Virus record (IMG/VR): IMGVR_UViG_2563366929_000009
DNA: 16,405 nt
From: a virus
Taxonomy: Duplodnaviria > Heunggongvirae > Uroviricota > Caudoviricetes
Reading direction: 5' to 3' (one strand)
Every line of letters starts with the position of its first letter. The stretch's first letter is position 1. Below the pieces are notes generated by a model, which had not been told where the DNA came from, searched no databases, and was given only the letters and a program-made list of their open reading frames with translations. Below are positions 6,177 through 12,322 of this stretch, in pieces. Position numbers and translations under genes: made by a program.

Positions 6177-6492
6177 TTTATGAATCAGTCTGTGGAGTTA
6201 GGGTTGGTGTCAACAAGTAGGGTAAGAGCCTCAACGTGATGCTATGCCGACCTGCTCCCTGAGAATTCACACAGAAGGCTGCTAGCAATGTCTGCAGATC
6301 GCTCAAAGCGGACTAGAAGGTTAGCTTGCGTCGGACTTGGCGTATTTAAAGAAGTGCTGGTGGTGACTGGTTGTTGTGTTCCATTTCTACAGAACAAAAT
6401 CACAGAAACTATACCCAATAGTTATATTGAATCAATGATGAGACAGCCTCATATTTATCAGAACTGGTGTACGTCCAATACAGGAGGTTGTC

Positions 6493-6582
6493 GTGCTGGT
6501 TCTCAAATGTGCGCTAGCTATTGCGGCTGTAATGGCAATTTATTGTCTTGCTGTTGTTCTTATGGATCGCCTTTCTGATTGA
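6493..6582 (+). CDS. Candidate small hydrophobic peptide (29 aa: MLVLKCALAIAAVMAIYCLAVVLMDRLSD if GTG is read as Met)
   Basis: Near-consensus Shine-Dalgarno AGGAGG at 6482..6487, 5 nt before GTG at 6493. Single predicted transmembrane helix plus short charged tail. Possible -35 TTGAAT / -10 CATATT about 40-60 nt upstream. Below the ORF-track size cutoff. Confidence 0.3.
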   Translation: MLVLKCALAIAAVMAIYCLAVVLMDRLSD

Positions 6583-6793
6583 TTTTATATTGGCGAGGTG
6601 ACGGGAGTTAAGTAGAATTGCTGCGGGTGCTTGAGGCTATCTGCCTCAGGCATGAACACCAAAGGCAGATAGAGAAAAGCCCCAGTTAATATTACGCGTC
6701 CTGCAAGACGCTTAACATTAATCTGAGGCTCAATCTATGAACGGCAAATCTAGGTTAGCCTCTTACGTGCCGAAAGGCAAGGAGAAGCAGGCT

Positions 6794-6949
6794 ATGAAGC
6801 AGCAAAAGGCGATGTTAATCGCCCTGATCGTCATCTGTTTAACCGTCATAGTGACGGCACTGGTAACGAGGAAAGACCTCTGCGAGGTACGAATCCGAAC
6901 CGGCCAGACGGAGGTCGCTGTCTTCACAGTTTACGAACCTGAGGAGTAA
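6794..6949 (+). CDS. hokD: Hok/Gef-family type I toxin (HokD/RelF-like, 51 aa)
   Basis: MKQQKAMLIALIVICLTVIVTALVTRKDLCEVRIRTGQTEVAVFTVYEPEE is near-identical to my recollection of HokD. GGAGA Shine-Dalgarno 9 nt upstream. The in-frame upstream extension from 6737 (ORF-track 70-aa ORF) may be a mok-like leader ORF. Hairpin GGCGAGGG-agaaat-CCCTCGCC follows the stop, as at hok mRNA 3' ends. Confidence 0.85.
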   Translation: MKQQKAMLIALIVICLTVIVTALVTRKDLCEVRIRTGQTEVAVFTVYEPEE

Positions 6950-6987
6950 GAGACCCGGCGAGGGAGAAATCCCTCGCCACCTCTGAT

Positions 6988-7395
6988 GTGTCAGGCATCC
7001 TCAACGCACCCGCACGTAACCCGCTTCGGCGGGTTTTGTTTTTTCCTGGCATTCTGGTTTACAATTCGCACGCCAGCCTGAACAACTGGCACCTGCTGCG
7101 CCAGCAGAGACAACCGATGGCGCACGATACCAAATTACACAATTCTGATGATTCTGCCGTCTTTGCCAGCAGGCACGGGCGGCGTTCCCGCACTTTCAAA
7201 TCTGACTGGTTCCAGCATCCCCCATGCACTGAAGAACAGGCCGAGTGGCTAATTCAGTGCTACCGCAGACACGGATACGAGATTAAGAAAGCCCTCAGCC
7301 TCGATTATCGTCACTGGATAATCTCCGTCAGGCTTCCTTACTCCGAACGATCACCGCGTCCGTCCCGCACATTCCAGCAACGCATCTGGAGGTAA
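6988..7395 (+). CDS. Hypothetical protein (start uncertain: GTG 6988 or ATG 7117); occupies the rem-like slot between hok and the DUF968 gene
   Basis: Open frame ending at TAA 7393..7395, one nucleotide before the downstream gene; that gene's GGAGG Shine-Dalgarno lies inside its 3' end. GC-rich composition like neighbouring prophage genes. No family recognised. Confidence 0.4.
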   Translation: MSGILNAPARNPLRRVLFFPGILVYNSHASLNNWHLLRQQRQPMAHDTKLHNSDDSAVFASRHGRRSRTFKSDWFQHPPCTEEQAEWLIQCYRRHGYEIKKALSLDYRHWIISVRLPYSERSPRPSRTFQQRIWR

Positions 7396-11319: not shown

Positions 11320-11395
11320 GGCCCTTTAGCTCAGTGGTGAGAGCGAGCGACTCATAATCGCCAGGTCGCTGGTTCAAATCCAGCAAGGGCCACCA
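11320..11395 (+). tRNA. ileZ: tRNA with CAT anticodon, most likely tRNA-Ile2 (lysidine-type, ileZ-like); tRNA-Met not excluded
   Basis: 76 nt with encoded CCA. Acceptor stem GGCCCTT/AAGGGCC, D-arm AGCTCAGTGGTGAGAGC, anticodon loop CTCATAA, T-arm GGTTCAAATCC. Resembles my recollection of E. coli ileX. Confidence 0.85.
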
Positions 11396-11402
11396 TCACA
11401 TA

Positions 11403-11479
11403 CCGCCATTAGCTCATCAGGAAAGAGCGCCAGCCTTCGAAGCTGGTTGCGCGGAGTTCGGGTCCCCGAAGGCGGTCCA
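11403..11479 (+). tRNA. tRNA-like sequence with UCG (Arg) anticodon; degenerate, possibly a pseudogene
   Basis: Cloverleaf can be drawn (anticodon loop CTTCGAA) but with A.A mismatch in the acceptor stem, a mismatch in the T-stem and an atypical T-loop TTCGGGT (G at the conserved A58 position). Confidence 0.45.
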
Positions 11480-11492
11480 TTATCTGTATCCT

Positions 11493-11569
11493 GCGTTGTT
11501 AGCTCAGCCGGACAGAGCAATTGCCTTCTAAGCAATCGGTCACTGGTTCGAATCCAGTACAACGCGCCA
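11493..11569 (+). tRNA. tRNA-Arg (anticodon UCU)
   Basis: 77 nt. Acceptor GCGTTGT/ACAACGC, discriminator G and CCA. Anticodon stem ATTGC/GCAAT with loop CTTCTAA. T-arm GGTTCGAATCC. Confidence 0.85.
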
Positions 11570-11614: not shown

Positions 11615-11828
11615 CTCACAATTCAGGCGGTTGACTGTTGTCTGGTTTGCGGGGAGTTTGTTAAAAGAAACTGGCATGGTGAATCCCCCTGTGCGGAGGG
11701 GCAATCAGCGAGTAGGTATATGGGATAATCGCGGATTCAGGTGCTGGTACTGAATTCACCGGGAGGCACCCGGCACCATGCAATGGCACATAGCGCCACT
11801 CTCCAGCCCCTCTCCGGAGGGGCTTTTC
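11615..11828 (+). repeat. Structured unit A: promoter-like element, hairpin, SD-ATG and terminator modules
   Basis: Shares conserved blocks with unit B: CTCACAATTCAG, GTTGAC, TTTGTTAAAA, GCATGGTGAATCCCCCTG.GCGGAGGGGC, GGTATA, TCACCGGGAGGCACCCGGCACCATG, AGCCCCTCTCCGGAGGGG+T-run. Blocks are separated by divergent spacers. Tiny ORFs at 11778..11903 (41 aa) and coupled 11903..12004 (33 aa). Confidence 0.6.
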
Positions 11829-12018
11829 TGTGCCGGATACATCACAGTTTCTGGAACCTTAGGTACTACAGTATCAGTCAGGGTGCTATATTTTCAGATG
11901 TGATGAAAGCCTGTCAGCAGGCAGGGCGTATCGGAAATGACCCAGTAGAGAAAACGTTGACTCAGATACCGGTGCTGAGTTACCGGGAAACCGGCATCAC
12001 ATGACCGCTATCCTTCCA

Positions 12019-12082: not shown

Positions 12083-12316
12083 CTCACAATTCAGTAAGTT
12101 GACAGTTGCCTGTCAGACTGGGCATTTGTTAAAAAAATTTCGCATGGTGAATCCCCCTGAGCGGAGGGGCGACTGGTGACGGTATAATCTCTGATTATCA
12201 AAACGAGAATGACGCGGGTTTAGTGGCACCGGGCTGAACTCACCGGGAGGCACCCGGCACCATGTGCATGATGATACAGATACGCGGCTTTAGCCCCTCT
12301 CCGGAGGGGTTTTCTT
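12083..12316 (+). repeat. Structured unit B (paralogue of unit A)
   Basis: Same conserved module set as unit A. Includes consensus -35 TTGACA (12099..12104) and consensus -10 TATAAT (12183..12188). Terminator CCCCTC-tccg-GAGGGG + TTTT at 12294..12316. Confidence 0.6.
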
Positions 12317-12322
12317 GTGGGC

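Follow-up and report, generated by a model that had tools for sequence, protein, structure and literature searches.

The locus described here raises the question of whether a hokD-type toxin gene carried by a prophage is an orphan, as hokD is in Escherichia coli K-12, or one part of a complete type I toxin-antitoxin unit. It lies in a 16,405-nt stretch of Caudoviricetes DNA (IMG/VR record IMGVR_UViG_2563366929_000009), referred to hereafter as the window. An initial annotation, made from the sequence alone, had recognized a Hok-family type I toxin locus with a structured leader at 6583-6975 and reported that the cognate antisense RNA was not located.

The best explanation of the sequence, and one that we hold with good confidence, is that 6590-7045 forms a complete, self-contained hok/mok/sok cassette, borne by a prophage and regulated in the manner of plasmid R1 (Table 1). 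It is an ordinary copy of the well-known hok/sok cassette of E. coli prophages. Public records and the literature already contain the kind of cassette, its family and its exact sequence; the sole gap is one of annotation.

Table 1. Coordinates of the features of the hok/mok/sok cassette in the window, with the basis of each placement.
Feature	Position	Strand	Details and basis
Putative hok promoter	6590-6618	+	-35 TTGGCG (6590-6595), 17-nt spacer, -10 TAGAAT (6613-6618)
Inferred full-length hok mRNA, ~421 nt	6625-7045	+	5' end by homology, 3' end by terminator
tac	6625-6636	+	Predicted folds; pairs with fbi in full-length RNA and with ucb in truncated RNA
Metastable 5' hairpin	6632-6648	+	TGAGGC-tatct-GCCTCA; covariation across loci
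Long 5' stem	6637-6672	+	6637-6646 with 6663-6672; includes the initially annotated CTATCTGCC/GGCAGATAG pairing
Candidate Sok antisense RNA, ~77 nt	6669-6745	-	Ends by alignment to RefSeq sokC of K-12
ucb / anti-SD	6677-6683	+	Predicted folds; role from R1 model (PMC9841398)
mok Shine-Dalgarno (SD)	6726-6729	+	GAGG, 7 nt upstream of ATG 6737; identical in Sp5
mok reading frame, 70 aa	6737-6949	+	ORF translation; in frame with hok
Hypervariable 12-nt patch	6740-6751	+	Complement of Sok 5' tail and Psok discriminator (mok codons 2-5)
Sok promoter (Psok)	6752-6780	-	-35 TTGCCT (6780-6775), 17-nt spacer, -10 TAACCT (6757-6752); homology
dcb	6757-6762	+	Pairs with mok SD region 6725-6730 in the truncated fold; closes the Sok-target hairpin
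hok toxin gene, 51 aa	6794-6949	+	Pfam, PHROG, homology; SD AGGAG (6780-6784)
GC-rich 3'UTR hairpin	6957-6978	+	6957-6965 with 6970-6978, GAAA loop; after hok stop codon
fbi (fold-back inhibition element)	6999-7011	+	CCUCAACGCACCC; pairs with tac in MFE and centroid folds
Intrinsic terminator	7018-7045	+	AACCCGC-TTCG-GCGGGTT (7018-7035) and T run; terminator scan; common to K-12 hokD

Extent and genomic setting of the cassette

The features recognized in the initial annotation were all found where it had placed them, but the unit does not end at 6975; it runs in the 3' direction to ~7045, and both fbi and the terminator fall outside the original limits. Alignment to characterized hok/sok loci, which had been suggested as a check, located the Sok promoter; tac and fbi were identified with the aid of predicted folds.

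Over positions 6480-7060 the window matches a prophage region of UTI89, S88, APEC O1, IHE3034 and the E. coli type strain at 100% identity. When this 581-nt segment was used as a query, at least 80% of its length was matched in 2629 of 5426 complete E. coli genomes, at a median of 2 and at up to 11 places per genome. In UTI89 the locus is found between genes of the prophage replication region and those for DUF968, RusA and Q. The setting is that of the early-right region in a lambdoid prophage, the host being extraintestinal pathogenic E. coli. The sole RefSeq feature of UTI89 at this locus is a CDS named 'hokD', mok and sok features being absent. A 618-bp gap devoid of features upstream of that CDS corresponds to window positions 6177-6793, and holds the whole hok leader, mok, sok and a small open reading frame (ORF) at 6493-6582. 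In some phage records the hok ORF is named MokW, Hok or gef.

Similarity to most phage records begins abruptly at ~6605, between the -35 and -10 elements of the hok promoter, and stops at ~7013 or at ~7043. These sharp limits indicate that the cassette behaves as a discrete moron in varied prophage contexts. VT2-Sakai, where it is found near the prophage end, provides an example of another context.

The toxin gene and the mok reading frame

The HokD-like toxin proposed at 6794-6949 was confirmed by a match to Pfam HOK_GEF (PF01848; E=2.6e-22, 78.6 bits against a cut-off of 22) and by a match to PHROG 251, 'MokW-like host killing' (2.8e-32). The invariant residues of the TRK-LCE core are present (T25, R26, K27, L29, C30 and E31). 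The protein is 98% identical to HokD of K-12 and 92% identical to HokW, and it bears the RefSeq name HokD. The HokD peptide is toxic (bioRxiv 10.1101/2025.08.07.668861).

The leader ORF that had been noticed in frame with hok is indeed an ORF of 70 codons. Its ATG lies 57 nt before that of hok and is aligned with the mok start of Sp5, hokC and R1. Among 60 aligned hok loci, mok was in frame with hok in 37, at +1 in 19 and at +2 in 4. This variation of the frame fits the view that it is the translation of mok that matters rather than its product.

The Tyr47 codon of hok, UAC, is followed by G (6932-6935, + strand), which gives UACG, the motif that marks sites of A-to-I editing by TadA. Recoding of Tyr to Cys has been reported at hokB, and bioRxiv 10.1101/2025.08.07.668861 gives hokC, hokD and hokE as further cases. 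Editing at this codon, if it occurs, would give Hok a second cysteine.

Predicted promoter, ends and folding of the hok mRNA

The putative hok promoter matched the consensus at 9 of 12 positions in a consensus scan. Its -10 element is common to Sp5 hokW and its -35 element is unlike that of Sp5. A promoter-like site on the minus strand (TTAACT-18-TAAAAT, 6582-6611) is placed back-to-back with it, as judged by consensus match only. The putative hok transcription start and 3' processing site were placed by homology. In alignments, the proposed 5' end, GGGUGCUUGAGGC at 6625, falls on position 1 of Rfam RF01794 and on the 5' end of the R1 hok mRNA. The leader (6625-6799, + strand) scored 113 bits against RF01794, for which the gathering score is 59, a match far beyond chance, and the 421-nt transcript had a minimum free energy (MFE) of -175.4 kcal/mol (z = -8.06 as compared with shuffled sequences). 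Both results bear out the original description of a Hok-family type I locus with a structured leader.

The leader hairpins named in that description were found at the positions given for them. The hairpin at 6632-6648 and the pairing of CTATCTGCC (6637-6645) with GGCAGATAG (6664-6672) share bases, and must therefore be alternative structures. They correspond to two structures already known from hok mRNAs, the metastable 5' hairpin and the long 5' stem, respectively; the role of the metastable hairpin has been described for R1 (PMC9841398). The GC-rich 3' stem-loop was likewise confirmed. It is an internal 3'UTR hairpin and not the terminator. By analogy with R1, in which mutation of the equivalent last stem-loop abolishes toxicity through exoRNase sensitivity (PMC9841398), it is presumed to be the hairpin that protects the 3' end of the processed, translatable mRNA.

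In the predicted fold of the full-length RNA, 6625-6636 paired with 6999-7011 (tac/fbi) in both the MFE and the centroid structures, and 6678-6681 (ucb) paired with the mok SD region. In the predicted fold of a truncated RNA (6625-6995), the 5' end shifted onto 6677-6683 (tac/ucb), while the mok SD region (6725-6730) paired with dcb (6757-6762), giving a hairpin around the mok start. These predicted alternative pairings match those of the R1 model summarized in PMC9841398.

A match to the isrK sRNA (Rfam RF01394) at 6958-7039 on the + strand was rejected, as its score of 27.8 bits is below the gathering score of 50. It consists essentially of two generic hairpins, overlying the hok 3'UTR hairpin and the terminator. 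The genomic context also opposes an isrK identity, because it differs from the isrK-orf45-anrP setting of Gifsy-1.

Conservation of the fold across hok loci

Conservation of the predicted structures was assessed in 80 hok loci taken from GTDB species representatives, about 70 of which have a full leader; 60 distinct full-length mRNAs among them were aligned. When the full-length fold of the window RNA was mapped onto these 60 loci, 79.3% of cells were paired, as compared with 40-45% in controls with slid partners. Fifty pairs had changed on both sides, and none of 500 shuffles reached the covariation score. The tac/fbi helix was paired in 90.8% of cells, with one pair splitting into C-G in 30 loci and U-A in 24. 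For the metastable hairpin the figure was 94.2%; three of its six pairs showed compensatory changes, a result reached by none of 500 shuffles. The long 5' stem (93.3% paired, 3 pairs with compensatory changes) and the helices of the 3'UTR hairpin (94-98% paired, also with compensatory changes) behaved similarly.

The pairings predicted for the truncated RNA were nearly invariant. Taken together, the tac/ucb and SD/dcb sets were 86.5% paired and gave no covariation signal; separately, the tac-ucb pairs were 94.7% paired and invariant, and the SD-dcb pairs 80.9% paired and largely invariant. Because of this invariance, covariation neither supports nor contradicts these two pairings.

A direct duplex search revealed that tac and fbi change together: GGGUGCUUGAGG occurs with CCUCAACGCACCC, GGGCGCUUGAGA with UCUCAAGCGCCC and, in Sodalis, GGGUGCUCUGGAUC with GAUCUGCGAGCACCC. 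Where the 3' region is intact, fbi was found 45-57 nt past the stop codon in most loci.

A candidate Sok antisense RNA on the minus strand

The initial annotation had not located the antisense RNA, and our consensus sigma-70 scan of the leader was equally blind, reporting no Sok promoter on the minus strand. Both missed it because its -10 element matches the consensus at only 3 of 6 positions. Homology nevertheless placed a candidate Sok on the minus strand, at ~6669-6745. Its ends were taken from the RefSeq sokC feature of K-12 (positions 553-611 of locus L003), which lies opposite hokC. The candidate spans the SD and the start codon of mok, with its 5' end (~6745) corresponding to mok +9. 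It comprises a single-stranded 5' tail of ~7-11 nt, a long hairpin and then a U-rich tail, CUUUUCUCUAU, and its predicted fold has a free energy of -34 kcal/mol (z = -6.55). The homologous Sok segments that were printed as examples from the 60 loci fold into a comparable arrangement of 5' tail, hairpin and U-tail.

The hexamers and the spacer length of the Sok promoter are identical in sokW of Sp5, and none of the 60 loci departs from a 17-nt spacer. When expressed from its own promoter, sokW neutralizes HokW, and mutations in its -10 region abolish the antitoxin activity (Takada et al., 2021; PMC8621323). The Northern probe used for sokW (YO-592; PMC8621323) corresponds to window positions 6717-6746 and, being sense-strand sequence, detects a minus-strand RNA. 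A mutagenic primer from the same study (YO-421) targets the AGGTTAGCC motif. Judging by sequence, we conclude that the minus strand carries a putative Sok gene at ~6669-6745, in which a promoter, a 5' tail, a hairpin and a U-tail can all be recognized.

Comparison with known hok/sok systems

The cassette shares 93.4% nucleotide identity over 6605-7013 with hokW-sokW of Sakai prophage 5 (Stx2 phage Sp5/VT2-Sakai; PMC8621323). The hok -10 element, tac, ucb, the mok SD, dcb, the -35, spacer and -10 of Psok, the hok SD and fbi are identical in the two. Sp5 also has a 70-aa in-frame mok, its Hok is 92% identical and its prophage is lambdoid. The differences cluster in the patch after the mok ATG, at the C-terminus of Hok (4 residues) and in the 3' hairpin, where one compensatory pair differs (6961/6974); the region upstream of the hok -10 differs as well. 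As a result of the change in the 12-nt patch, the Sok 5' tail begins GCCGUUCAU... in the window and GUUCAGCAU... in sokW. A canonical terminator follows fbi in the window, whereas the Sp5 sequence diverges at this point. The cassette occupies the early-right region of its prophage in the window, and lies near the prophage end in Sp5.

Plasmid R1 hok/sok (parB), the paradigm of type I toxin-antitoxin systems, has its elements in the order seen in the window, and the pairings predicted for the window agree with its alternative pairings. The two have in common the metastable hairpin, tac/fbi, the 3' hairpin and the terminator and, in the predicted folds of the window RNA, also ucb/SD, tac/ucb and SD/dcb. 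The geometry of the Sok promoter is also alike, TTGCGC-17-TATCCT in R1 and TTGCCT-17-TAACCT in the window. The two differ in that R1 Hok is only 41% identical and plasmid-borne rather than prophage-borne. In R1, moreover, the 5' stem insert is longer and the Sok hairpin shorter (Sok ~60 nt as compared with ~77 nt in the window), and mok is out of frame in R1 proper but in frame in the window. The hokC/mokC/sokC locus of K-12 (gef) resembles the window in its in-frame mok, and its leader scored 118 bits against RF01794. Its Hok is 80% identical and SokC is shorter (59 nt). In K-12 the hokC stop codon is followed, after ~20 bp, by IS186, which lies where fbi would be expected, and a search at the usual offset from hokC revealed no fbi-like match.

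The initial annotation had placed the locus in a context unlike the relBE-hokD arrangement of K-12, and this was upheld. Hok of K-12 hokD (relF, Qin prophage) is 98% identical, differing at one residue, but the K-12 locus shares only the sequence from ~6781 onward, namely the hok SD, the CDS, the 3'UTR hairpin, fbi and the terminator. It is without tac, ucb, mok and sok; relBE and unrelated sequence stand in place of the leader, and the relE stop codon is ~70 nt upstream of the hokD ATG. The K-12 downstream flank (rem, ydfU) parallels an unnamed 92-aa ORF and the DUF968 protein of the window, the Pfam scan having covered the window only. Among 80 phage loci from IMG/VR with a Hok identity of 98% or more, 76 had a full leader and 2 had the K-12 junction. 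The window therefore represents the common complete form, and K-12 hokD a derived orphan. On this sequence evidence, K-12 hokD appears to derive from a locus of this type, relBE having replaced everything upstream of the hok SD.

Proposed mechanism and biological role

We infer the regulatory logic of the cassette from its conserved anatomy and from experiments with R1 and Sp5. A weak promoter would give rise to the ~421-nt hok mRNA, which the metastable 5' hairpin would at first hold in an untranslatable state. The tac/fbi 5'-3' fold-back would next take over, with ucb masking the mok SD. Slow trimming of the 3' end to the GC-rich hairpin would strip off fbi, upon which tac would pair with ucb and the mok SD would enter the dcb hairpin that presents the mok start region. 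The processed RNA would then either be translated, with mok coupled to hok to yield the 51-aa membrane toxin, or be bound by Sok, an unstable antisense RNA of ~77 nt synthesized constitutively from 6745 to 6669 on the minus strand. With its 5' tail and body, Sok would pair across the mok SD and AUG, after which the duplex would be degraded. As the processed RNA would be blocked by an antisense RNA that is both constitutive and unstable, Hok would be made only once Sok synthesis stops.

The most likely trigger, by analogy with Sp5, would be prophage induction, with Hok aiding lysis and phage release. Upon induction of Sp5 with mitomycin C, sokW disappears and HokW appears in a RecA-dependent manner, and deletion of the locus halves phage release, an effect of about twofold (PMC8621323). 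Alternative triggers would be loss of the prophage or the shut-off of transcription by an infecting phage. R1 hok/sok reduces T4 plating, as cited in PMC8621323. Since the Sp5 cassette sits at another prophage site, the trigger may differ between Sp5 and the window, and for the same reason interference with Psok by read-through from the early-right promoter was left out as a trigger. A possible ranking of roles would place an inducible toxin that assists lysis ahead of a silent or selfish element, and the latter ahead of addiction or abortive infection.

Alternative readings of the locus

If the locus were instead a decayed, orphan toxin of the hokD type without an antitoxin, as in K-12, this would account for the solitary 'hokD' CDS in RefSeq, the 98% identity of the protein to K-12 HokD and the lack of a minus-strand promoter in the consensus scan of the leader. 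Three observations speak against such a reading. The window has a full leader at 113 bits, while an RF01794 search of K-12 hokD gave zero leader matches; homology to K-12 starts only at ~6781; and Psok is identical to that of sokW, the antitoxin activity of which has been shown experimentally. We regard an orphan as very improbable. A literal reading of Rfam would place the antitoxin RNA on the + strand, at 6625-6799, because the family named 'sok antitoxin' (RF01794) scored 113 bits on this strand and just 19.9 bits on the minus strand. K-12 provides a control for this assignment: there the RF01794 match (L003 502-654, minus) is on the hokC-sense strand and the curated sokC (553-611, plus) is opposite. 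The consensus of the model, moreover, starts at the hok mRNA 5' end and ends at the hok AUG, and the sense-strand probe for sokW has a minus-strand RNA as its target. RF01794, although named 'sok', models the hok-sense leader and not the antisense RNA, and an antitoxin on the + strand is scarcely credible. An automated annotation based on RF01794 would assign 'sok' to the incorrect strand and overstate its length by about 100 nt.

That the cassette is intact but physiologically silent, a selfish or neutral element without a role in lysis, addiction or defence, deserves more weight, though we consider it unlikely. An intact sequence is no guarantee of a phenotype. The chromosomal hokA, hokB and hokC loci were inactive both in tests of post-segregational killing and in tests of activation by rifampicin (bioRxiv 10.1101/2025.08.07.668861). 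The small effect of hokW-sokW on phage yield points in the same direction, as do the 9/12 consensus match of the hok promoter and a -35 element unlike that of Sp5. Against silence, the regulatory elements have been kept, with compensatory changes, across many lineages, and the phage copies are intact in 76 cases out of 80. Without selection on function, this degree of conservation would be difficult to account for. The near-identical hokW-sokW, in addition, makes Hok on induction. We prefer the complete, R1-type regulated cassette as the reading of this locus.

The distinction bears on how such loci are read elsewhere. The RefSeq label 'hokD' on thousands of loci omits mok and sok; together with the naming of RF01794, it can lead to the toxin being mistaken for an orphan or to the antitoxin being put on the wrong strand. 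Whether a prophage copy is complete, or truncated like K-12 hokD, affects the interpretation of toxin-antitoxin inventories of pathogenic E. coli, and is of use in planning experiments on prophage induction and lysis timing.

A hypervariable patch at the Sok 5' tail

The 12-nt patch at 6740-6751 is hypervariable. In 12 loci of the hokD/W type its entropy was 1.03 bits, as compared with 0.22 locus-wide. The 76 full-leader phage loci with a Hok identity of 98% or more contained at least 14 alleles, and 13 of these loci had the allele of the window, ATGAACGGCAAATCT. It is conceivable, though we would not expect it, that the patch acts as a specificity barcode that makes the hok/sok modules of different prophages mutually orthogonal. 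If so, each Sok would silence only its own hok, and loss or induction of each prophage would be sensed singly, even with up to 11 copies per cell. None of 15 pairs of co-resident hok copies shared a Sok-tail allele, a comparison without power given a baseline of 2.9%; hokC and hokW have the same Sok tail. The patch is a cheap and testable lead on antisense specificity among co-resident prophages.

Neighbouring features

The unannotated ORF at 6493-6582 (+ strand) encodes a hydrophobic peptide of 29 aa, MLVLKCALAIAAVMAIYCLAVVLMDRLSD. It has a GTG start codon with AGGAGG 5 nt upstream, and it ends 8 nt before the hok -35. Searches of Pfam and PHROG with this ORF gave zero matches, and tblastn found it in only 4 phage records, in none of which it is annotated. 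The frame and the length of 29 aa are kept in 19 of 20 related loci, with a substitution pattern that is not decisive.

Three tRNA genes (Ile, Arg and Arg in the UTI89 annotation) are present at 11320-11566 (+ strand). The location of tRNA genes downstream of Q is typical of lambdoid and Stx-type phages. Downstream of this tRNA cluster, after the Q antiterminator and DNA methyltransferase genes, are two + strand copies of the STnc100 prophage sRNA, at 11645-11835 (136 bits) and 12113-12322 (161 bits).
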